From a virus, in the IMG/VR virus record IMGVR_UViG_3300019742_000002, positions 1 through 64,000 of that record: a stretch of DNA of 64,000 nucleotides; one strand, given 5' to 3'. The position numbers and the translations under genes are program-made. The notes under the pieces were generated by a model. That model was given only the letters and a program-made list of their open reading frames with translations. It was not told the DNA's origin and did no database searches. Positions 4,431 to 63,279 of this stretch are shown one piece after another (positions within the stretch are counted from its first letter, which is position 1; every line of letters starts with the position of its first letter).

Positions 4431-5130
4431 ACTAGGTATTTTATATAGCCTTGATTTGGTTTTAAGGTTATATATTTGTTTTATGTTGAATATACTATCC
4501 TCTATATTTTTATACTTGTTACATAATTTATTGAACTCTTTTTTAAGTTCAGTATAATTAATCGCTCTTGAATATTCTCTATATTGGTGTGAATTATATG
4601 TACTATATAATTCCTTTAATTTATGTATCTCTATGTATATAGAATTTCTAATTTCATACAGTCTTATTAGTTCGTTTTCGTCTTTTAAATTCATAATTTA
4701 ATCCTTTGTTGTTTTCTAAATATTTCTTAAGTACACCTAATGCTGATAATTTAGCTCCTGTTATAGTTTTATTAATGTATCCAACAGCTGTATCATTTTT
4801 ATATTCAACTCTTGATAAATATCCACCATCAATGCTATCATGAGTATAGTATCTCATTCCATTTATATTGGTAAATATCTCCATAATTTAATCTTTTATT
4901 CTATCAATATACTCTTCCAAATCAAATATAGATGTCTTTAGATTTTCTATTTGGTCATTATGAAATTTATATCTCATCTTTAGTTCATCTAAATGTTTGT
5001 TATTGTGATTCTTATCCATTAATAAATTATCTATTTCATAAATCCTTTCTTTATGTTCTTCAATTTGCTCATAATTTTCTTTAATCTTCTCTCTAGTTGA
5101 TTCTATTTCTTTAGTATTATATGAACTCAT
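4422..5130 (-). other. Three small hypothetical early ORFs (4422-4694, 4654-4884, 4888-5130)
   Basis: Abutting or overlapping co-oriented ORFs. Confidence 0.6.
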
Positions 5131-6224
5131 AGTGAAATCCTATCTATAATTTTTCTAACCTTATCAGAAGATACATTCTTAGGATTTGTAAATAATTCAG
5201 AAACCTTTTGTTTAGCTTCTGTTTTGGTATATGTTGGTAATATCTCAACACTATCTACTATCATACAAGAAGTTCCATTAAAATCTACAGCATATTTACC
5301 ATTAATTTCACCATAATATATAGCTTGTGTCTCAAAGCCATCATCTCTTTTAGCTAGAACTATATCACCTTGTTTGACAGGTTTTTTAGTTGGTTTTAGT
5401 AAAGCTTCCTCATAAGAGATAACTTTAAAATCACCTGATACTAAAAAATCTAATGTACTATCATAAACTGTATAGTTATTATAGCCATCATTTGATATAT
5501 CAAGACAAGTTTTGTCATCGTGCATATATAAAAATTTATCTAACGGTATTTTTAAAATATTATTATTCAACCATCTTAACAATTCTCTATATTTTTCCTC
5601 AGTATCACAATGTACAGCTACATCACTCAGTAGCAAATCTTTATTAAACTCTACCAAATTTACTTCTTTAGTTGGTTTTAGTAAAGCTTCTTTATAGGAG
5701 ATAACTTTATATTTATCTCTTATAAATCTATCTTTATTATCATCAACAATATATTCACTATGTATATCATCATATATTAAAATACAAGTATTCTCTTTAT
5801 GTTTATATAAAAAACTATCCAATTGTATATTAAAAACATTAGAATTAATCCACTTCAATAATTCTCTATATTTTTCTTGGGTATCACAATGTACAGCTAT
5901 ATTACCACTAAGCGAATCTAAATCAAATTCTACCATTTTATTATCCAAATCTAAATCGTATTTTCTCTTAATATCTTTAAATTGAACAACATCGAGACTT
6001 CTATCTTTATAGTAATCAATATGTGCATTACATACAGTTCTATGTACTATATAAAACATACCACAATCTTCATTAACTAACCATTTTTCTTCAAGACTAG
6101 TATCTATTTTTATATCTTTGTATAAGGATGATAATAAAACCTCCAATTCTTTAGCTTCCTCTTTAGTTTCGCAATGAATACCTATTTTCTTATTGATAAT
6201 TGTATCTAAATCAAACTCTACCAT
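5127..6224 (-). CDS. Hypothetical protein with three tandem ~95-aa repeats plus an SH3-like C-terminal domain
   Basis: VEF..D....I(G/A)VHC(E/D)T.E...ELL unit occurs three times; YxEALLKPTK twice. Confidence 0.75.
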   Translation of the reverse strand: MVEFDLDTIINKKIGIHCETKEEAKELEVLLSSLYKDIKIDTSLEEKWLVNEDCGMFYIVHRTVCNAHIDYYKDRSLDVVQFKDIKRKYDLDLDNKMVEFDLDSLSGNIAVHCDTQEKYRELLKWINSNVFNIQLDSFLYKHKENTCILIYDDIHSEYIVDDNKDRFIRDKYKVISYKEALLKPTKEVNLVEFNKDLLLSDVAVHCDTEEKYRELLRWLNNNILKIPLDKFLYMHDDKTCLDISNDGYNNYTVYDSTLDFLVSGDFKVISYEEALLKPTKKPVKQGDIVLAKRDDGFETQAIYYGEINGKYAVDFNGTSCMIVDSVEILPTYTKTEAKQKVSELFTNPKNVSSDKVRKIIDRISL

Positions 6225-6311
6225 TTTATTTCCTTTATTATTTTATTCTTATAATTATAACCAACTAAACCTTAAAGTTTTATAAATAATCTTAAAAGTA
6301 GAGGTAAATTT

Positions 6312-6665
6312 ATGGAATATATTGATATTAATTCTAACATTAATCAAACTAATGTATCCGGTGAAAGTGCTATAAAAAATAGTGTAGTAAATATATTAAC
6401 CACCGAAGTTGGGTCTGTACCGGGTCATCCTGAATTTGGTTCTGCTGTTGTTAAGTATTTGTTTCAACCACTTGACCCCTTGACTACAGAAATGATAAAA
6501 GTAGAGGTAAGATATGCCCTTGAAAGATGGGAAACTAGAGTAACAATTAAGGATATTATAGTTAAAGAAGATATAGATTATAATAGATTAGATGTAGAGA
6601 TTATATATTTTATAAAAGTTGATAGAGATGTTGAGAATACTTTACTATATAGTTTTGTTAGATGA
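6312..6665 (+). CDS. gp25: Baseplate wedge subunit gp25
   Basis: AIKNSVVNILTTEVGSVPGHPEFGS...LFQP...ALERWETRV signature. Confidence 0.93.
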   Translation: MEYIDINSNINQTNVSGESAIKNSVVNILTTEVGSVPGHPEFGSAVVKYLFQPLDPLTTEMIKVEVRYALERWETRVTIKDIIVKEDIDYNRLDVEIIYFIKVDRDVENTLLYSFVR

Positions 6666-6698
6666 TTTTTATAAATAAATTAAAAAGAGGATATTAAT

Positions 6699-9600
6699 AT
6701 GCTAACAATAGTACCGTATCAATTGGATACAATTAAAGAAGATTTAAAAACAAAGGCTGTAGGATTAGGATATACTGACGCTATACAAGAGGGTTCTAAT
6801 ATTTCACAATTAATAAATCTTCTTAGTTATGCTACTTTATACCCTAACTTAAACTTTACTTTTGGATTAAATGAGATGTTTTTAACACAAGCCACTGACA
6901 GAGCTAATGTTCTAAAACACGCAAGAGATAAAGGATATATTAGTAAAAGAATGCAATCGTATCAATATAAAATTAAACTATTGACTAATAAATATGGTGA
7001 AATTACATTAAATAAATACCAACAATTTTCATCTAATGGAAATAATTATATCTATATGGGGGACTCTATCACAAATGTATATGGAAACTATGCTTATATT
7101 AAGCTACTTTCTAACGAATTTAATAATAGCTTAGATAATACCTATATTGATAATATTTTAGAAGAATCTAATATAGTTACAGAAGATGGTCAGGTTTGTT
7201 ATATATATAGCAAAGAGATTGGAACTTCTAACAAATTGTTAATAAAAACATTAGATGATGAGGATTTACCTATATTTTCTACACTTCCAAAAGAAATCTA
7301 TACACACGATGGAACATATTCAGGAGGATATAGAAATCTTCAAAAAGTCGGTGAAATTGATTCTTATATTACCTCTACTGATGGAAATGAATTTAAGATA
7401 CAAATTACAACGGATACACCCGGAGATTTTCCTATATTTACGGAAGTTATTGAAAATAAAGCACTAAATCAAAATGGTTCTATATTTAAGTTTGATACTG
7501 ATGTAGCAAATCCAATCAAATATATAAAATCTATAGTAGTGGACTCCTCATCAGAGAGTATAGATTTACTTAGTGTAGAATATAATGAAGGTGATTATAA
7601 TGCTAGTATACCAACAGGTCAATTATCTATTATAGAAAACCATCCAAATACCGATATATCCACTGATGTAGATTTTAATGCTAATATAGATACTACTCAC
7701 AATATTATAGAATTAACAGGGGTACAATTAGTAAAAGGTTCAAATAATATAGATATATCTACGAACGATTTAAGTTTTATAGGTAATACAATCTCTATAT
7801 TACAACAATCATATCAAGATACTGAATCTAAAATTGTAAGTGGTTCTACTATCCAATTAACACAAGATAATATAGATATAGTTCTTTATGTTATTATTAG
7901 AAGTACCTCATCAACTCTTATAAGTAATTTTAGTTGGACTACCGATGGAGTTATAACAATTTTAGATGAATTTAATGCACCTGATACACAATATGATGGA
8001 TTAAATGTAGATATTGATTTTAAATATATAGAGGATTATACAAATGTTGATGATATTAACATATCCTATACATATAATAACAATACACTTGCAGGTGAAC
8101 CAATAACAGTGACTTATGAATATGATATTGGAGGTGATGGATTCTTAGATAAAAAGTTTTTCTTTAGTGATTTAAGAGGTGAATATTTAGATAATGAGAC
8201 TAATTGGGAAGGTTTTTATGCAAATTCTTTTGACCCCGAAACATCCATATTAACCTTTGATATATCAGGTACTAATAATTTATATGTTAGTATAGAAAAT
8301 AATGGAATTTTTGAAGACCCTTTGCAATTGAATGAAGCTATAGAATCTCCTTATAGAAGGACTAGGTTTTCAAATGGTGTTGTATTCGACGAGAGTACTT
8401 GTTTTGCTTCTATAAATAACACAGAACTAAAAAACACAATAGAGATAGTTGTGAAAGAGGGTGAATTAAGAAGATATAGTGATGTGGATGATTTATCAGA
8501 ACCTTTGTATCCAAATCAAACTTTTATTATTAATAATGATATGGAAGATTCGGGATATTTTATGATAGATGCTGATACTATTGAAAATAATGGTATTGAG
8601 ATGTTTGTAACAAGAACTATAGATGATGGTTCTTTAGTGACTGATGAGGTTTGGACTAAAAGAGAGCTTTTGTTACCTGAGAAAAAACTAGAAGAGGATA
8701 AGACTTTTATTATACTATCTGACTTAAATTACGAAAATTATGTAAATATCTATACTAGATATGCAGGAACAGGAACGGCTTTAGGGTTAGGTTCAACTAT
8801 TAAATTGAATATGATATATTCAAGTGGTTCAAATGGATTTACTAATGATATAATAGAACCTATTGATAATACTGATTTTATTGGAACAATGTATGATGAG
8901 GATTTAAATATCCCTAATATTGTCTATATAGAGGGGTCTGATAAAGAATCCACACAAGATATAAAAGATAATGCTTTATTATTTAACAATACAGCATCAA
9001 GAGCCGTTACCAAAAATGATTATTTAACAATAGTAAATTCTCAGCCATTTATAGGGGATACTGAAATTTGGGGTGGAGAGGATATAGTACCTACACCTGT
9101 ACCCGGTCATATATATATAACGGCTATACCAACATCTAAACCTAGTGATTTTGTTCTAATTAATAATGAGTATATATTAACATCTACTAACACAGATTTA
9201 TTCTACCCTACATATTATCAAATAACAGGTAAAGATAGTTATATAGACTATGATGCAAGTACAGAAGCTGAGGTATTATTTAATATTATAGATAAATATA
9301 AAGTAATGACACTACAATTGGATTATGTTAAAACTATTTATTTAGATTTTAAGTTAGATATAAGGATTCTTAAGAAAACTTTCTTTAAGAGTACTGAGGA
9401 GATAAATGATGAGATGTTTAATAAGATAAAGGATTATTTCTATACTAATATAGAGACATATAACTCAAACTTCTTCAACTCAACAACAACAAAATATATA
9501 GATTCGGTTCTAGGTGATGATTTTGGTTTTGAAATGAATGTAGATTTTAGTGTGGAGTTGTTTGATTATATAGACGACCCCGATAGAGGAGTTTTTACCA

Positions 9601-21134: not shown

Positions 21135-21211
21135 AAAAAATCTTTTATATCCAATAAGAAACTTTACTAGGCTCAACTTATTGGATATAAAAGATTTTTT
21201 GAGCCTAGTAA
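21135..21211 (+). promoter_or_regulatory. Structured 5' leader (24-bp hairpin whose loop is complementary to the 3' flank)
   Basis: 21135-21158 pairs perfectly with 21177-21200; 21164-21176 pairs with 21199-21211; follows sigma70 promoter 21103-21125. Confidence 0.8.
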
Positions 21212-21244: not shown

Positions 21245-22018
21245 ATGAAATATACAACTCCAAAAATACCACACGAGGATTTATTCTTCAAAGATGTAAA
21301 ATTTAAAACTACAGGTTATTATGTAAAAAGATTTCCAAAAGAATTGGAAGAGTTTCTTATTATGGATTTAGATTTAAAACATTCAAAAAGATACTACATT
21401 GATTCAGTTTATAGATTCTATATAGATAATTTAGAAGAATTAAAAACAGATATTACTCCTTTTATAGAATTTTATAAATCCAATAATAAATTTTATGGTA
21501 AACCTACAATAGCTAAAACATATCCTGAATTATTAGAACAATGGATAGAGGCTACCAAAAAAACTGAATATACAGTAGAAAAATTATATGAATTATGTAT
21601 AAAAGGAGCTTTACCAAAACCAAGAGAAAAATATAATAAAATGATAGTGGATTCTTTATGTGATGAAGCAAAAGAAGAATTTAATAAAGGTGTTAAATTG
21701 TCTTTTGTTATAAGAAAATATATTAATAAAGAAGATATTAATACTCTTTGTAAATCTTGTGGTAAACCAGTTAAACAATTAACAAATGAGTGTTTAGATT
21801 GTACTAAAAGTTTAAAGCAAAAAAGAGCTTCTAAGAAAAGAGGTTTAAGAATGTTAGAAGATAAACCTTCTTATGTTAGTGTTGTAAAAGGTGATGTATT
21901 TTCAGAAGATATTCGTAGAGAAAGACTTACGATTAAATGTTCTAATTGTAATAGAGAATTTTCTTATGTATTGAACTTAGGTAAGAGACACCTATTCTGT
22001 CCAATATGTGATAAATAA
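21245..22018 (+). CDS. Zinc-ribbon protein resembling the DNA-binding part of a homing endonuclease; no nuclease domain visible
   Basis: CKSC, CLDC, CSNC, CPIC then stop; directly downstream of gp23. Confidence 0.55.
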   Translation: MKYTTPKIPHEDLFFKDVKFKTTGYYVKRFPKELEEFLIMDLDLKHSKRYYIDSVYRFYIDNLEELKTDITPFIEFYKSNNKFYGKPTIAKTYPELLEQWIEATKKTEYTVEKLYELCIKGALPKPREKYNKMIVDSLCDEAKEEFNKGVKLSFVIRKYINKEDINTLCKSCGKPVKQLTNECLDCTKSLKQKRASKKRGLRMLEDKPSYVSVVKGDVFSEDIRRERLTIKCSNCNREFSYVLNLGKRHLFCPICDK

Positions 22019-23098: not shown

Positions 23099-23220
23099 CT
23101 ATAACAAAAACTTATAATAATTAAAATTTGTAAATAAAAACTCTTATAATAAAGAAAAAGAATTAAAAATTTTAAAAAATATAAATTATTATATTCAATC
23201 GTAGATACTTTTTTATTTTA
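23099..23220 (+). repeat. Dispersed repeat, copy B (right arm of palindrome 1)
   Basis: Near-identical unit, inverted relative to copy A. Confidence 0.95.
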
Positions 23221-23340
23221 ATCAACTATAGTAAAATGAGTAAAACTTATATTAAAATTTAAAAGGGAAGTGTCTTGAAGTAAAAAATAAATTAACAAGA
23301 AAACTAATCACTTTAGTAATCTTATTAATTATTATATCAA

Positions 23341-24676: not shown

Positions 24677-24809
24677 AAAACCATCTACAATTAAAATATA
24701 ATAAAAACTTATAATAATCAAAATTTGTAAATAAAAACTCTTATAATAAAGAAAAGAATAAAAAATTTTAAAAGTTATAAATTAATATATTCAATCGTAG
24801 ATACTTTTT
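24677..24809 (+). repeat. Dispersed repeat, copy C (solo)
   Basis: Full unit from aaaaccatct to tcgtagatacttttt. Confidence 0.95.
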
Positions 24810-24870
24810 ACAAATATCAATAAAAAAGGAGTTCAAATGTTTTGACTTTAGATAAGAGTTTGTGAACTAG
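24809..24870 (+). pseudogene. Decayed copy of the late promoter, RBS and first codons of gene 30432-31418
   Basis: tacaaatatcaataaaaaaggagttcaaatgttttgactttagataagagttt versus tataaatatcaataaaaaggagtttaaatgttagattttagagaggaattt at 30405. Confidence 0.75.
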
Positions 24871-30258: not shown

Positions 30259-30405
30259 AAAACCATCTAAGATTAAAAAATTATTTATAGTATATAATAA
30301 AAACTTATAATAATCAAAATTTGTAAATAAAAACTCTTATAATAAAGAAAAGAATAATAAATTTTAAAAAATATAAATTATTATATTCAATCGTAGATAC
30401 TTTTT
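30259..30405 (+). repeat. Dispersed repeat, copy D (solo)
   Basis: Full unit; abuts late promoter 30405-30412. Confidence 0.95.
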
Positions 30406-30431
30406 ATAAATATCAATAAAAAGGAGTTTAA

Positions 30432-32675: not shown

Positions 32676-33878
32676 TTAAAATTCATTATCTTCATATTTA
32701 AGTAATTTATCTTCAAGCTCTTTTATCCTCGTTCTTAATTCTTTAATTAATTTAGATTCATCTTCTTGAACCTTTGGTTTAGCCTTTATTACCTTTGTGG
32801 ATTTTATACTATTATAATTGAAATCTTTTGGTGTATCTTCAAGTTTTTGTTTTATATCTTTTAAATCATACAAAAATTTTTGTGGTATTGGCATAATCAA
32901 TGTATATACCTCACTTGAAACTATCTTAATAGGATGGTTGTTATCTTGTATAAATATTTCAATTTCATTCGTATCTATAGCCTTATGTACTCTTTTAGCA
33001 TCTATAACTATCTCTAATGGAGCGTCTATATTATAATCACAACTCAATCTTTGAGTATAACCTATTTTATTTTTAATATCATCGTATTCTTGAACTATAC
33101 AAATTCCATCTTGAAAAATTAATTTACATTCTTTTATTTTTTCTGTGGCTTTTTTGAGTTCTATACCATTAATTTTTATACTAATATTAAACTCTTGTTT
33201 AATAACTCGTTGATAGTCACTAGTTATATTATTTGTATATAATTTAGATGTTATTTTAATATCGTTATCTACATAGAAAGATACAAACTCTTTACCTATT
33301 TTAACTTTTTTAAGTATTATATTAGGTACAATAGCCTTTTTAGGAATAGCATATAAACCTACAGAATTAGGTGAAAATTCATTTATGGTCATGGATATTG
33401 TGTCTGTGCTAATAATTTTATGATTATTATAATCTACCAATAATCCTTTATAGACATCTAGCGCATAATTTGGATTTATTCCATCATATATAACCTTAGA
33501 GATAGGAATATCATCTTTATTAACTAGAACATCATTATTAAACATATCTTCATAATCTTTATATGTTTTGTCTATTTTTGGATTTTTTATGTTTTCAAAA
33601 GATTTTTCCAATGTCCCTGATTTTATTACAATTTGACTATCTTTAAACTCAAATTCTAAATCATCTTTAGAGTTTTTTAAAAAATTCTTAAACTCTAAAA
33701 AATCTATCTTGAAATCAGGTAAAGTTAAGGGTATTGAGCAAGATGTTTTAAATTCATAAGAACCAGTCTCTAGTAGTGTATTATTATCTTTATTTGTAAA
33801 CAATAATAAGGGTTGAGTATTTTTGTTGTAACTTTTTTGAAGATATTTCATATATCTTTTAATGTCTTTTATTTTCAT
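32676..33878 (-). CDS. Divergent DNA polymerase III beta-clamp-like protein with C-terminal coiled coil
   Basis: KGLLVD..IISTD, IPKKAI, ITSKL..DYQRVI, HPIKI..TLIMPI match DnaN motifs in the right order. Confidence 0.75.
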   Translation of the reverse strand: MKIKDIKRYMKYLQKSYNKNTQPLLLFTNKDNNTLLETGSYEFKTSCSIPLTLPDFKIDFLEFKNFLKNSKDDLEFEFKDSQIVIKSGTLEKSFENIKNPKIDKTYKDYEDMFNNDVLVNKDDIPISKVIYDGINPNYALDVYKGLLVDYNNHKIISTDTISMTINEFSPNSVGLYAIPKKAIVPNIILKKVKIGKEFVSFYVDNDIKITSKLYTNNITSDYQRVIKQEFNISIKINGIELKKATEKIKECKLIFQDGICIVQEYDDIKNKIGYTQRLSCDYNIDAPLEIVIDAKRVHKAIDTNEIEIFIQDNNHPIKIVSSEVYTLIMPIPQKFLYDLKDIKQKLEDTPKDFNYNSIKSTKVIKAKPKVQEDESKLIKELRTRIKELEDKLLKYEDNEF

Positions 33879-46387: not shown

Positions 46388-48181
46388 CTATAGAAGAGCT
46401 ACCTTGGTGTATATAAATCTATCAAGAGTCATAAAACCTTTGAGTAACTGTAAACTATAGATAGTATTTGTTATTAGTTTGATAAAGAGCATCTTTCTAA
46501 TATTGTTCTTAAATCTTTTAACCCCTATCTTAATACCCTTTTTAATAGAGTGAATTAATTTAGCTCTTTTTCTTCTTTTAATAAACTCTTTTCTCTTTTT
46601 TTCTGATTCAAAATATTTAATATAACTTCTAGTTTCAGAAAAATCTATTATTTGATTGTTTAATTTCAACATCTTTTGAATTTCTTTAATATCAGTTAAT
46701 TCAAGTTTAGAAATTTCATTAATAGGAATAAGAAGTCCATCATGTACATTTACTATATGTTCAATTTTAATTTTTTTAGTACCTAGGTATGCTTTAAGAG
46801 AATTCATAATTTTAGTTTCTTCTAACATAAACATTCTTGAAATATTTTCATATCCTAAATTTCTAGCTATAATATCTAATTCTTTCATTTCTGAATTAAA
46901 ATCTTTATAAAAAGTTGAAAGTTTAAGTGCATCATGTACAGTTTTATCATCTTTTGTATTTCTATTAAAAGGAGTTAAATGTCTTCCAAATATAGCACTA
47001 AGATACTCCATTTTAAACATAGACCTAAATTCAATCTTTTTGTTAGCTCCTTGTTTACCTCTAATATTATCAATTGTATCTACATTGGACTCAATAATCT
47101 TTTTTCTATTTTTTATATATTCAATAAGACAAGGATAGTTAATAGGGTCTATATTATGGTTCTCAAAACAATTCTTTATTAATCTTGGTGCGGCATTTTC
47201 TAAATCAAATTCAATATAATCTCTAAATAATCCATTTCTTATTTTTTTAGGAATCTGATTTAAAATATCAAAAATTCTACCAGAAGATGTAAATGTTCTA
47301 TTAAAATAAATATGTTCATCTACTATATTTTTTCTTATTAATTTCATAGAATTAATATATCTTCTTCTTTGAGCTGGGTATCTCATATATCCTATATCAT
47401 TATCTAATTCATCGAGAATCTCTAAGTAATTATTGGGTAATTTAAATTTTATAATATCTTTGTAATTTTCCTTAGGAACTTCTCTTGGAATATTTTTAGA
47501 TTTAGATGTAGTTACATCATCAGAGAGTCTCATTATAACCATATCAATAGGTTTTAGAGGTTTTTGTTTAGAGGCTATATCATAAAACTCCTGATATTTG
47601 GCTAGAGAAATAGTACCATTTAGAACTTTTTTAAGAATAGTATCTACTTTTTGGACTTTTGAATATACTTGGTTACTGTTGTCATAAGGATTGTTTAAAA
47701 ATTCATAAGAAGAACAACCTGAACCATCAAAAGAATTACCTCTTCTTGTTTGATTAAGATAAAGGTTATAGAAATCTCTATATGATACAAAAGAAGATAG
47801 GGATTTTTTAAGGTAGGTATTACTAAGAGCAAGGTCACCTGTTAATTCATGAACTGAATGAGCAGAAGAAAGTAGTTTAGAAATAGATTTTAGAACATTG
47901 ATTGATAGGTTATATTTAATATATTTTTTTGCACTTTTAAATTGAATCATATCTTGAACAATACTAGGATGTGGAACTATAGAGTAACTTCTTTTTTGTT
48001 TTTCTATATTAGTAAAGGTTTTATCTGATTTAATTGCAGTATGAACTTGAATAATAGCCTCTTTTGGATTAAGGATATTTTTAATGTAGTAATAATCCTT
48101 GTGGATTGTAAGATATGTTAGGTCATAATTAAATGGATTGGTAAGTATATAATCTTTGAGGTTTTCTTTTTTAATTTTCAT
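46388..48181 (-). CDS. PolA-superfamily (TV-Pol-like) polymerase without a recognisable exonuclease domain
   Basis: SGRIF..L..IPK.IR; motif A YIEFDLENAAP; motif B R..FK..YLSAIFG; EETKIM; motif C VHDG. Confidence 0.75.
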   Translation of the reverse strand: MKIKKENLKDYILTNPFNYDLTYLTIHKDYYYIKNILNPKEAIIQVHTAIKSDKTFTNIEKQKRSYSIVPHPSIVQDMIQFKSAKKYIKYNLSINVLKSISKLLSSAHSVHELTGDLALSNTYLKKSLSSFVSYRDFYNLYLNQTRRGNSFDGSGCSSYEFLNNPYDNSNQVYSKVQKVDTILKKVLNGTISLAKYQEFYDIASKQKPLKPIDMVIMRLSDDVTTSKSKNIPREVPKENYKDIIKFKLPNNYLEILDELDNDIGYMRYPAQRRRYINSMKLIRKNIVDEHIYFNRTFTSSGRIFDILNQIPKKIRNGLFRDYIEFDLENAAPRLIKNCFENHNIDPINYPCLIEYIKNRKKIIESNVDTIDNIRGKQGANKKIEFRSMFKMEYLSAIFGRHLTPFNRNTKDDKTVHDALKLSTFYKDFNSEMKELDIIARNLGYENISRMFMLEETKIMNSLKAYLGTKKIKIEHIVNVHDGLLIPINEISKLELTDIKEIQKMLKLNNQIIDFSETRSYIKYFESEKKRKEFIKRRKRAKLIHSIKKGIKIGVKRFKNNIRKMLFIKLITNTIYSLQLLKGFMTLDRFIYTKVALL

Positions 48182-48215
48182 CTAATTCTCCTTTTTTATT
48201 TAGTCAAAAGTAGAA

Positions 48216-48289
48216 TGCTGTCCTACTTCTTAAGAGAGTTCATATCAAGTGGTAGGACAGCAAAAGCACCTGTATATGAACTCTCTTAA
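48216..48289 (-). promoter_or_regulatory. Structured 5' leader (long hairpin whose loop is complementary to the 3' flank)
   Basis: 48230-48245 pairs with 48274-48289; inner 48246-48251 with 48267-48272; 48216-48226 pairs with 48252-48262; lies between late promoter 48301-48308 and the RBS. Confidence 0.8.
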
Positions 48290-48318
48290 AGACTTTATGT
48301 TATTTATATATTTATTTC

Positions 48319-48359
48319 TAGTAAGATATTGGTTTATCTATATTACCAATATCTTACTA
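48319..48359 (-). terminator. 15-bp stem hairpin after gene 48370-48870
   Basis: tagtaagatattggt / accaatatcttacta. Confidence 0.75.
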
Positions 48360-49977: not shown

Positions 49978-51087
49978 CTAAAACTCCCACAAAATCTCAT
50001 CAAATTCATCATAACATGGCACAGTAAAACTTCTCATCATACCAAGATATACATTATCATGGATAAATTTACCTTTTCTTTCACTTGCTCTTTGTTTAAT
50101 AATTTCCAAAGATGTACAAAATATGATGGACTTTTTGTGATAGTCTTTAGGGATAGAGTGAAGCCATTTTCGTCTTGATTTAATACTAAGATTTGTCATA
50201 TCAATAATAATATTTTCTCTATCTTTAACAGCCTTTTGGAACTTCTTTTGGACTAATTTATCAATCTCTTTGTGTAGGTCATTTTCGGTTAGATATTTCC
50301 AAGCTTGATTATAGTTCATATTATCGTCTATTTTAGAAATATAATCCATCATAGTATTATCTCTACTAATTACAACCTCATCTTTAATATTGTTTTTTAT
50401 GTATGTAGATTTACCTGATGAGGGTAATCCTGTCAATAAAGTTATATTTTTACTTTTATTAATAATAGGTTCATTTGAGGTGTATTTTAGAAAGGTATCT
50501 TCATTAAAAATATCTTTACCTAATCTAAGAGTATCCTCTTTTTTTGAAAATTCATCACCAAATCTTCCTAAAGAATCATATTTAACTTGATTTACAAGTG
50601 TGTAGTAATCCTCTATATCTCTGAATTTAGAAACTAACTTTTCTGGTTTATATTCCATTCCATCTTTAATATGATTAAAAAGAGTTCCGTGTAATGAAAT
50701 AGCATTAAGAATTTCTGACTTTTCTTCATCACTTAATTCAATTTCTTTTTGAAGATTATTAAGAATTTCTATAGCTAACCAAAAGGAGATTCCTTCGTGT
50801 CCTTTAAAAAATGTGCGTTGTTTCTCATTATCAATTTCTAAAGATTTTGGTTTTCCTATATCGTGGAGTAAAGCCACAATTTTGTTAATTTTAGTAGCAT
50901 TATATAGTTCAGCTACTTTACAAACCATCATTAAATGTGTCCATATTTGTCCTTCTATATGATATGGGTTAATACTATCTTTGTAATGATGGGTACAACT
51001 TTCCATATCTTTTGTTAGCTTGGGTTGAGTTACTTGAAACCATTTTATTAGTTCGTTCATAGTTGGGTTTTGTTTATTTTTGAACAT
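49978..51087 (-). CDS. HD-domain phosphohydrolase fused to a P-loop (polynucleotide kinase-like) domain
   Basis: YHIEG.IWTH..LLHDIGK..F.GHE; GLPSSGKST, ISRD, IIDMTNL..SRR.W. Confidence 0.88.
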   Translation of the reverse strand: MFKNKQNPTMNELIKWFQVTQPKLTKDMESCTHHYKDSINPYHIEGQIWTHLMMVCKVAELYNATKINKIVALLHDIGKPKSLEIDNEKQRTFFKGHEGISFWLAIEILNNLQKEIELSDEEKSEILNAISLHGTLFNHIKDGMEYKPEKLVSKFRDIEDYYTLVNQVKYDSLGRFGDEFSKKEDTLRLGKDIFNEDTFLKYTSNEPIINKSKNITLLTGLPSSGKSTYIKNNIKDEVVISRDNTMMDYISKIDDNMNYNQAWKYLTENDLHKEIDKLVQKKFQKAVKDRENIIIDMTNLSIKSRRKWLHSIPKDYHKKSIIFCTSLEIIKQRASERKGKFIHDNVYLGMMRSFTVPCYDEFDEILWEF

Positions 51088-60070: not shown

Positions 60071-61366
60071 TTGAGTGAAATACCTAAAAAAACCAAAAAA
60101 TCTATAAGACAATATGTACAAGAGGATGAGATTAAATTTTATATATACCTTTTTAAATATTCCCAACAATTAAAAAATATTGAAGAAATGACTAAAGAAG
60201 AAATATTAGAAAAACATAAAAAGGCCGTTCAAGCTAGATTGAAAAGAATTAAATCGAGTATTCTAAGGAAATATGAAAATTTTTTAAATGTCATTGAGGC
60301 TGGTGATAATGATTTAACTGATGAGTTTGTCTTATCAAGGTTTAATAAATTAGATAGAGATAATAAAGAAATATATACTGATTCTTTAGAGGGTATTTTT
60401 ATATATAATAAAAATAAAGAGTATGTTAAATGTTGGGAAGCACCTATAGATAGAGATTTAATTATAAAAGAATTTAATGAGAAGAGGAATAATTATATAG
60501 AATTTCTTGAAAATACGGACAATAAAAGATTTAAAAATGAGTTAGATTATGTAAAAAATATTAAAATATCTTCTAATACATCTAAGGAAAAATTTGGTAA
60601 AATTATAATGATTATGGTACATAACTTATTAAAAATGCCTAGTTTTAGTTCGTATACAGATAATTGGAGTTCTGATTTTTATTCAAATGCTGTAGAGAAA
60701 ATATTATTATATACTCATAATTATGATGAAAATATACTATCTTCTATATCAGGTCAAAAAAGTAAAGCCTTTGCATATATAACACAAGTTTGTACCAATG
60801 CTTTTAGGAATATTATAAATACAAGAAAAGAAGATGAGGAGTGTCTTAGAGATACTATTTCATTGAGTACATTTCACACCGATGGTGTATTAATAGATTC
60901 TACCAACAAAAGTACATATATTAATGAACATAACTCAATAAAAATTAGACTAAAAACTAAAGACATTCTTATAGAGATTAAAGATTATATTGATAAAATT
61001 AGAGAAACTAATTCTATAAACTTTGCTAATATATCTATAAAAACTGAGTTAAAATATTTAAAAGAGGATATAGATGAGGTTGATAAAAATAGTGACTATT
61101 ATGATTATATAGAACAACTAGAAAATAAAATAAATCATTCTAAGTTGATAGAAGATTTAAGTAACAACGAAGACGAAATTGAAGGTGTTACATTTATAAA
61201 AGATTCTAGTATTAGTTTAACTGAGGATATTTTAAACGAAATAGAGGCTTATAAAGGTTCTCTATATGTATCAATAATAAATTATAAAGAACCTATAGAA
61301 ATTGAAAAAGAGGAAATTATAGAAAAAATAGTTAAGAAAAAGGTGGATTTTACAGATGAGTTCTAA
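60071..61366 (+). CDS. gp55: Late-transcription sigma factor gp55 (enlarged, 431 aa)
   Basis: FGKIIM..V.NL...SFSSYT..W..DF..A.E..L.Y..NYD...AFAYITQ..NAF; adjacent to gp47. Confidence 0.88.
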   Translation: MSEIPKKTKKSIRQYVQEDEIKFYIYLFKYSQQLKNIEEMTKEEILEKHKKAVQARLKRIKSSILRKYENFLNVIEAGDNDLTDEFVLSRFNKLDRDNKEIYTDSLEGIFIYNKNKEYVKCWEAPIDRDLIIKEFNEKRNNYIEFLENTDNKRFKNELDYVKNIKISSNTSKEKFGKIIMIMVHNLLKMPSFSSYTDNWSSDFYSNAVEKILLYTHNYDENILSSISGQKSKAFAYITQVCTNAFRNIINTRKEDEECLRDTISLSTFHTDGVLIDSTNKSTYINEHNSIKIRLKTKDILIEIKDYIDKIRETNSINFANISIKTELKYLKEDIDEVDKNSDYYDYIEQLENKINHSKLIEDLSNNEDEIEGVTFIKDSSISLTEDILNEIEAYKGSLYVSIINYKEPIEIEKEEIIEKIVKKKVDFTDEF

Positions 61367-62740: not shown

Positions 62741-62887
62741 AAAGAGTATCTACGATTAAATATATTAATTTATAACTTTTAAAATTTTTTATTCTTTTCT
62801 TTATTATAAGAGTTTTTATTTACAAATTTCACTTTTTATAAGTTTTTATTATATTTAAACTATTATATTCAATCGTAGATACTCTTT
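62741..62887 (-). repeat. Dispersed repeat, copy E, with an extra inverted terminal motif
   Basis: Unit on - strand at 62741-62856; tattcaatcgtagatactcttt on + at ~62866-62887. Confidence 0.92.
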
Positions 62888-63055: not shown

Positions 63056-63197
63056 AAAATCATCTATGATTAAAACTATAATAAAAACTTATAATAATCA
63101 AAATTTGTAAATAAAAACTCTTATAATAAAGAAAAAGAATTAAAAATTTTAAAAGCTATAAATTAATATATTCAATCGTAGATACTTTTTTATTTTA
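63056..63197 (+). repeat. Dispersed repeat, copy F
   Basis: Full unit. Confidence 0.95.
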
Positions 63198-63279
63198 AAT
63201 GATTAAGTAATTATATACTATAGATATTAAATGATGATTATAGATGAAATGTGAAAAAAGGAATTAAACGGAGGTATTT

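Follow-up and report, generated by a model that had tools for sequence, protein, structure and literature searches.

The analysed window of 64,000 nucleotides is the first 64 kb of an IMG/VR contig of 91.7 kb (completeness, ~47%). On its minus strand, positions 46388..48181 (stop codon included) hold the coding sequence of a 597-residue protein (P0001), for which the open reading frame list, 19 remote HMMER homologues, and an AF2 model point to a TV-Pol-like polymerase. The contig carries genes for a T4-type portal protein (gp20), a major capsid protein (gp23), a gp6-like baseplate protein, and a gp47-like nuclease, and it also codes for both topoisomerase II subunits and a gp55-like late sigma factor (60071-61366), which bears out the view of the first-pass annotation that the phage is T4-like. 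No cultured phage has a major capsid protein more than 42% identical to that of the contig, which therefore represents a deep-branching T4-like lineage. With a GC content of 24.7%, against 26.3% for the genome, the polymerase gene is not compositionally foreign. Elsewhere in the window, a candidate clamp gene (32676-33878) was seen as a weak PHROG match only.

Expression signals precede the gene on the same strand. A strong Shine-Dalgarno sequence, AAGGAG (48188..48193), stands 6 nt before the ATG, in agreement with the ribosome binding site (RBS) noted earlier, and TATAAATA, a T4-type late-promoter motif (48301..48308, minus strand), lies 119 nt before the ATG, upstream from a structured leader. 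In a genome-wide census, 39 of the 75 copies of TATAAATA were intergenic, though intergenic DNA makes up 14.5% of the genome; the motif was found 17 to 25 nt before the ATG of ~19 genes, including those for gp23, the gp6-like protein, and other structural proteins, and its context at the polymerase gene resembles that of the gp23 promoter. The copy at 48308-48301 is thus a credible late promoter, as first proposed, and late timing of the polymerase gene can be inferred. The earlier claim that the gene forms its own transcription unit held in part. Promoter, leader, and RBS are in place, but the upstream terminator is not: the 15-bp perfect hairpin that follows the upstream gene (48319..48359, minus strand; z = -5.25) lacks a U-run, a terminator scan of 45.0 to 49.5 kb returned no terminator-like site, and the 147 nt past the polymerase stop codon showed no structure (z = +0.95). 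An isolated transcription unit is therefore only partly supported.

The protein belongs to a sparse and divergent family. Among 1.84 billion cluster representatives, an exhaustive HMMER search picked out 19 relatives with identities of 26 to 33%, all of them metagenomic singletons that are unnamed or labeled "hypothetical." An identical copy of the protein is encoded on a 173-kb contig. Neither the protein nor the family profile drew a meaningful match from sequence searches of Pfam, PHROG, and PDB; the Pfam DNA_pol_A family (PF00476) matched neither the protein at E <= 10 nor the genome at E <= 1, nor any of the homologues (0/19), and Pfam RNA_pol gave no match for the protein. A tblastn search of 50,697 phage records with the polymerase yielded no match, a word-indexed protein search yielded the self-match only, and scans of IMG/VR with the protein and with alignment A2 found no relatives; alignments A1 and A4 proved too divergent to serve in locus scans. 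One further match (L005) was discarded, as it lies off-frame within another ORF. Two of the family sequences, P0015 (the N-terminal domain alone) and P0014 (the polymerase part), come from one 3,490-bp JGI contig and appear to be a single relative's gene split in two. The family profile also found P0023, a protein of 823 aa (hmmsearch, E 5.7e-6; hhalign, 95%, E 3.8e-8), in which the matching region runs from the GR motif to motif B in the N-terminal part, and a DUF5906 D5-type helicase makes up the C-terminal part. The combination of a polymerase with a D5 helicase is the architecture that defines Sputnik-type TV-Pols (PMC2579912).

The AF2 model, built on the family alignment, has a mean pLDDT of 69 and a pTM of 0.46, and its quality differs along the chain. 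The first-pass annotation had described an N terminus of ~290 residues with no known fold; the absence of a known fold stood, whereas the notion of a single piece gave way to three segments. Residues 1 to 63 are unconserved and modeled with low confidence. They are followed by a family-specific alpha/beta domain at residues ~60 to 210 (47552..48004, minus strand), which is confidently modeled (pLDDT 86), bears conserved HSxH, LSxxYLK, and GCSSY patches, and gave no convincing match to a known fold and no match to an exonuclease fold. A disordered linker occupies residues 210 to 243, and the polymerase thumb starts near residues 235 to 250. In the thumb region, helices are modeled at residues 252 to 261, 263 to 267, and 269 to 284 with a pLDDT of just 55 to 76, and alignments to family-A polymerases run from residue ~235. 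In TV-Pols, the thumb is described as two antiparallel helices ahead of the hairpin (PMC2579912). Matches to the family-A fold define a thumb-palm-fingers core at residues ~235 to 520 (46622..47479, minus strand). They are confined to this core and no exonuclease was hit in Pfam, in keeping with the absence of exonuclease motifs noted at first; nor were exonuclease genes found among the neighbors of the polymerase gene. Past motif C, the alignment is poorly conserved. The C-terminal tail, first basic and then hydrophobic as originally described (residues 515 to 597; 46391..46639, minus strand), varies among homologues and is modeled as a long helix (residues 515 to 571) with low to moderate pLDDT. 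A D/E-x-F-I/L-Y/F-like C-terminal end, which might serve in clamp binding, was seen in several homologues.

Structure comparisons place the core in the family-A/T7-RNAP-type right-hand fold, in line with the order in which motifs A, B, and C occur. Foldseek matches in the PDB were all family-A DNA polymerases, with Pol theta and Pol I the best (top E, 4e-4). Among viral models (BFVD), the best named match was a Zamilon V13-like "DNA replication protein" (E 7.4e-6), followed by a Qinghai Lake virophage "helicase/primase/polymerase" (E 9.2e-5), with canonical phage PolA at ~1e-2, and the ESM Atlas structural neighbors of residues 234 to 528 bear D5_N/DUF5906 domains. The nearest relatives are thus virophage V13-like proteins, D5_N/DUF5906 clusters, and the TV-Pol-D5 fusion matched by the profile, which supports the kinship with TV-Pols suggested in the first-pass annotation; this similarity was measured through P0023 and the Zamilon V13-like Foldseek match, in a comparison set without a named TV-Pol sequence.

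The catalytic motifs reported at the outset are intact and conserved across the 19 homologues. Ahead of motif A, a T/DxxGR-type motif (TSSGR; 47276..47290, minus strand; alignment A1) lies in a predicted beta-hairpin, modeled as strand-turn-strand at residues ~290 to 303, and its R302 is invariant in the 19 sequences. Motif A, EFDLENAAP, spans residues 324 to 332, within a strand and helix start (residues 322 to 334; 47180..47218) that carries D326, N329, and A331 in alignment A1. Motif B, FRSMFKMEYLSAIFG, forms the O-helix at residues 385 to 399 (46985..47029), with R386, K390, L394, F398, and G399 marked in the same alignment, and motif C, NVHDGLLIP (residues 478 to 486), lies in a beta-turn-beta (477 to 479/482 to 486) at residues 477 to 486 (46724..46753), where H480 and D481 are at least 90% conserved; all three motifs are on the minus strand. 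The residues invariant in the alignment are R302, R315, D326, N329, A331, K390, G399, M452, E455, and T456, and F319, F398, H480, and D481 are near-invariant, with D481 absent solely in one truncated sequence. Position 386 is Arg here and Lys in most homologues, and helix 379 to 398 bears it together with invariant K390. Judging from order and spacing, we take SSGR302 to correspond to Klenow R668 and T7 RNAP R425, D326 to Klenow D705 and T7 RNAP D537, R386-x3-K390 to Klenow R754/K758 and T7 RNAP R627/K631, F398-G399 to Klenow Y766-G and T7 RNAP Y639-G, and H480-D481 to Klenow H881-D882 and T7 RNAP H811-D812. Alignment of the family profile with single T7 gp5 and T7 RNAP sequences by hhalign was not significant; with either enzyme, motif B gave the top local segment.

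These positions bear on the choice of sugar. Motif A reads D-x4-E in Pol I and D-x4-G in T7 RNAP (Klenow E710 and T7 RNAP G542). In the phage family, the steric-gate position (D326+5, equated with E710 by motif spacing) is Ala331 in all 19 sequences, and Leu stands in place of the ddNTP-discriminating Phe (Klenow F762). With the gate Glu replaced by Ala and F762 by Leu, ribonucleotides are probably not sterically excluded by the TV-Pol-like family, which by its sequence would probably accept them. CcPol, which uses dNTPs, retains both E710 and F762 (PMC7581432). The T7 Y639 position is F398 in nearly all sequences, the hhalign match to T7 RNAP over motif B being local and not significant; because of this Phe, positive selection of rNTPs is also unlikely, and the sugar preference cannot be called.

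Between the promoter motif and the RBS lies a leader of the form A-B-A'-B' (48216..48289, minus strand) with perfect arms of 16 and 11 nt. Its fold (z = -4.55) was equaled by 0/200 shuffles, confirming the structured leader of the first-pass annotation. Arm A (48289-48274, plus 48272-48267) pairs with A' (48245-48230, plus 48251-48246) in a stem of 16+6 bp (22 bp; -27.3 kcal/mol) around a 15-nt loop. The loop ends in segment B (11 nt; 48262-48252), which can pair perfectly with B' (48226-48216), a segment that begins 3 nt past the stem; the B:B' helix has -17.0 kcal/mol. A 3-nt linker is too short to span 22 bp, and A:A' and B:B' are therefore mutually exclusive, with no pseudoknot. In the window, the Shine-Dalgarno sequence is unpaired in both conformations, which makes simple masking of the RBS unlikely. 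An Rfam search of 45.5 to 49.5 kb (E <= 1) returned no family, and the hairpin sequence is unique within the window.

The DNA context was covered for four other homologues: L002/L007 (P0005), L003 (P0009; a 3.1-kb fragment), L004 (P0011), and L006 (P0019). The leader topology precedes three of the five homologous genes. At L003 it has a 25-bp stem and 12-nt B/B' segments (z = -5.69), at L006 an 11- to 13-bp stem and 13-nt B/B' segments, and in both cases the sequence is unrelated to that of the window leader. It is absent before the L004 gene, where a sigma70-like promoter and TATAAATA directly precede the RBS, and from the 173 nt available before the L002 gene. A census of the whole genome found three elements with both perfect arms of at least 10 nt, against 0.5 expected from Markov-2 simulations of 91.7 kb, and all three are upstream from ORFs. 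The second (21135-21211) precedes a 257-aa Zn-ribbon-like ORF; the third (genome 88547-88680), like the one at the polymerase gene, begins ~10 nt after a copy of TATAAATA and precedes a 900-aa ORF (genome 88755-91457). The nearest ESM Atlas clusters of this ORF carry DEAD/ResIII, BT4734-like_N, PriCT_2, and Herpes_ori_bp domains, a set that suggests a fusion of an AEP-type primase with an SF2 helicase. P0024 showed no significant similarity to the 902-aa ORF of L002 or the 731-aa ORF of L006. The leader is a real recurrent device of the lineage, enriched before replication-type accessory genes and not confined to the polymerase gene. The proposal of a polymerase that makes specific use of its own leader is weakened accordingly, with the topology found before two unrelated genes and missing before two homologues.

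The first-pass annotation had also tied the polymerase to iteron-containing palindromes, and no connection of this kind was found. The leader hairpin is not a member of the repeat family, whose ~130-nt copies lie at 23.1, 24.7, 30.3, and 62.7 to 63.2 kb of the window, none of them near the polymerase gene; in the parts of the other polymerase-bearing contigs that were covered, the family does not occur, and no tandem arrays were found near the window gene. Of the proposed co-occurrence of gene, leader, and repeats, only that of gene and leader thus persists, in part. As to genomic setting, 4/4 flanked loci are T4-like; three have the topoisomerase II genes gp39/gp52 no farther than ~7 kb away (the polymerase gene is 1 kb downstream from gp39/gp52 at L004 and 7 kb from gp52 at L006) and the fourth, L002/L007, has a dda-like helicase, the 902-aa helicase-like ORF, and EndoVII beside the gene. 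Neighboring genes lack Pfam and PHROG assignments and differ from locus to locus, except for one small unknown ORF common to L002 and L003. No D5-like helicase, SSB-like, or recombinase gene lies beside the polymerase in the window, L002, L004, or L006, and neither a helicase nor an SSB partner recurs there from locus to locus. Family searches for PolB (gp43 in T4) and DnaB found none in the four gene-bearing fragments, which are 13 to 47% complete and could miss both.

Taken together, we think it probable that the gene encodes a catalytically competent, proofreading-free nucleotidyl transferase of the family-A/T7-RNAP type, a putative primase-polymerase, that is expressed from a late promoter through a two-state RNA leader. 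A separable family-specific N-terminal domain precedes a minimal core (residues ~235 to 520) equipped with the metal-binding pair D326 and D481, with R302 for the primer terminus, and with the R/KxxxK pair (386/390) for the triphosphate. Such an enzyme would copy a template without proofreading, and its open gate would most likely serve the making of short RNA or mixed primers, or strand initiation, in an accessory role beside the T4-type machinery for replication and recombination. A primase-polymerase role has been proposed for TV-Pols (PMC2579912) and shown for CcPol-MP (PMC7581432). For the phage enzyme, a primase or initiator activity is inferred by analogy, and late expression would be odd for a replication initiator. 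A gp55-type late promoter would drive transcription, and the 5' leader, adopting either the A:A' or the B:B' helix and common to at least two other phage genes, would most likely act at the RNA level, on mRNA stability, processing, or translation. As conjectures, the likeliest are that the leader stabilizes the mRNA, that its long stem undergoes RNase III-type processing, or that it binds a common factor.

The strongest alternative, possible but on balance unlikely, is a primer-dependent DNA polymerase only, which would fill gaps, bypass lesions, or displace strands in late recombination-dependent replication and would not prime. The best structural matches are indeed DNA polymerases, CcPol alone only extends primers (PMC7581432), and the late promoter and the lack of a conserved SSB or helicase partner nearby would fit such a role; however, both residues with which Pol I and CcPol keep out rNTPs have changed, E710 to an invariant Ala and F762 to Leu, and the nearest relatives are the domains that occupy the primase position in virophage and D5 fusions. 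We regard as very improbable a miniature single-subunit DNA-dependent RNA polymerase, whether it transcribes a subset of phage genes or is packaged and injected like N4 vRNAP. Residue 398, at the Y639 position, is Phe and not Tyr, the core of ~290 residues appears too small for a specificity loop or an intercalating hairpin, the N-domain match fell below the stated noise level of the tool and Pfam RNA_pol was not matched, and a recurring candidate promoter was not found. Least probable of the three is that A-B-A'-B' works in cis at the level of DNA, as an origin, priming signal, or hairpin promoter on which the polymerase and the primase-helicase would act: origins often adjoin initiator genes, the topology adjoins two replication-type genes here and polymerase homologues elsewhere, and the L006 polymerase gene is followed by iteron-like arrays (30-bp x4.1 and 26-bp x3.9), but the remaining copy in this genome precedes the unrelated Zn-ribbon-like gene, every copy lies in sense orientation between a promoter-like motif and an RBS, the window stem has a G-U pair whose counterpart in the opposite strand would be an A-C mismatch, the window gene has no arrays close by, and the element is missing before two homologues.

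The primase-polymerase reading can be taken one step further. The TV-Pol-like enzyme and the AEP-like primase/SF2-helicase might form a second, non-T4 strand-initiation module, in which the polymerase, free of a ribose gate, makes RNA or mixed primers and both genes are co-switched late by bistable leaders sensing a common trans factor; we consider this decidedly unlikely, and if true, it would add a new regulon and a biochemically new type of minimal polymerase to T4-like phages. TV-Pol-type enzymes are biochemically uncharacterized except for CcPol. With ~290 residues, the core of the phage family is among the smallest in family A. Together with a steric gate predicted to be naturally "open" and a confidently modeled accessory domain without a known fold, this makes the family a compact test case for sugar choice and priming ability in family A. 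Its occurrence indicates that large T4-like phages can bear additional polymerases of a sort otherwise usual in virophages and transposons, and its recurring two-state leader is conserved in topology and not in sequence.

Several known systems invite comparison. T4 has translational operators at its replication genes, such as the pseudoknot in the gene 32 leader and the gp43 operator hairpin. The phage leader is similar in that a structured 5' element precedes the gene for a nucleic acid enzyme and is followed by an A/U-rich unstructured stretch and a Shine-Dalgarno sequence; it differs in its far longer stem (18 to 26 bp), in an interleaved second helix that a 1- to 6-nt linker keeps from forming together with the first, and in being common to unrelated genes. 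Compared with the Pol I domain of Klenow, Taq, T7 gp5, and Pol theta, the phage core is small (~290 residues versus >400), and the protein lacks a 3'-5' exonuclease, has its steric-gate Glu replaced, and falls below the PF00476 threshold. Unlike T7 RNAP, mtRNAP, and N4 vRNAP, it apparently has no large promoter-binding N-terminal domain or specificity loop, and it lacks a Tyr639 equivalent and is one third the size of the T7-like enzymes.

CcPol-MP and the PolA-SSB primases, found on SCCmec and Bacillota mobile elements (PMC7581432, PMC10061031), offer a further parallel, in which an A-family domain without proofreading exonuclease activity works outside canonical replication. CcPol-MP sets the precedent for an A-family domain that primes de novo, whereas CcPol alone only extends primers (PMC7581432). 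The phage family departs from it in having Ala and Leu where CcPol has E710 and F762, and neither an OB-fold partner gene nor a helicase operon was detected beside the phage gene. TV-Pols are fused to or neighbor a D5-like helicase, or go with a helical N-domain and the recombinase of a mobile element, whereas the phage polymerase stands alone and has a link to a D5 helicase solely through the remote relative P0023; its N-terminal domain is alpha/beta, while that of TV-Pol is described as all-helical (PMC2579912); it resides in a large T4-like phage genome and not in a small virus or transposon; and its family has diverged too far to be recognized by Pfam or PHROG. With TV-Pols it shares a minimal family-A core without nuclease domains, the beta-hairpin Arg, two conserved palm Asp residues (D326 and D481), the R/KxxxK pair of the fingers (386/390), and occurrence in viruses (PMC2579912). 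By its sequence, the enzyme is best filed as a very divergent new variant of the TV-Pol type, in or beside the TV-Pol clade, with predicted catalytic activity.

The 900-aa ORF P0024 lies outside the window, farther along the same phage genome (L010:5530-8457, genome 88529-91457), and is preceded by the late-promoter motif TATAAATA and an A-B-A'-B' leader, that is, a hairpin whose loop can pair with a 3' segment (18-bp/15-bp, z = -6.3). Its product carries an N-terminal pattern, LDIDD...STNHG...RFRI; SPTNSGKT forms its P-loop, and a DEAH box is also present. Pfam and PHROG gave no match for P0024; the ESM Atlas clusters closest to it contain DEAD/ResIII, BT4734-like_N, PriCT_2, and Herpes_ori_bp domains, which suggests that the protein joins a primase of the AEP type to an SF2 helicase. 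A third A-B-A'-B' element, with a perfect 24-bp stem, was found at window positions 21135-21211, with the gp23 terminator region on one side and, on the other, a 257-aa ORF (21245-22018) that has weak zinc-ribbon matches. The loop of this element, TTACTAGGCTCAA, and the segment TTGAGCCTAGTAA are complementary, the latter overlapping the stem's 3' end.

The leader of the window polymerase is unrelated to a dispersed repeat family of about 130 nt (23099-23229, 24696-24826, 30292-30422, 62741-62859 [inverted], and 63076-63206), whose copies share the core ATTCAATCGTAGATAC, occur in both orientations, are up to 94-96% identical, and often have a TATAAATA promoter at their end. In the T4-like contig L006, directly past the stop codon of the polymerase homolog P0019, a region without ORFs (L006:11862-12304) contains a perfect 30-bp tandem array (4.1 copies), (ATT)x42, and a 26-bp array (3.9 copies), a layout that looks iteron or origin-like; no such layout was seen adjoining the window polymerase gene. 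In L004, the contig encoding the homolog P0011, a 70-nt perfect direct repeat and duplicated topoisomerase gene segments (87-94%) lie upstream of the intact gene (L004:4611-4912 and 4684-4846 versus 7052-7227), and the gp39 homolog is split into two ORFs (5166-6884 and 6875-7597); the duplications and the split gene suggest rearrangement or insertion.

A 369-aa HD-domain and P-loop kinase protein (AAA_33/KTI12-like, PHROG polynucleotide kinase-like), encoded at window 49978-51087, two genes before the polymerase cluster on its upstream side, may act in RNA repair or nucleotide processing. An Acb1 (anti-CBASS phosphodiesterase) homolog (L010:256-747, genome 83256-83747; Pfam E value, 1.2e-28) adjoins class I ribonucleotide reductase genes.

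An acidic-aromatic patch (DRFIY, DRFWAEW, TDFLMRF, QEFIFLM, and ELFTIFD) closes several family members, as seen at the C-terminal ends of the window polymerase (about 30 residues, window 46391-46480) and its homologs P0013, P0017, P0019, and P0020. Although the likeness could be due to chance, these ends resemble the clamp-binding tails of T4 gp43, gp33, and gp55.
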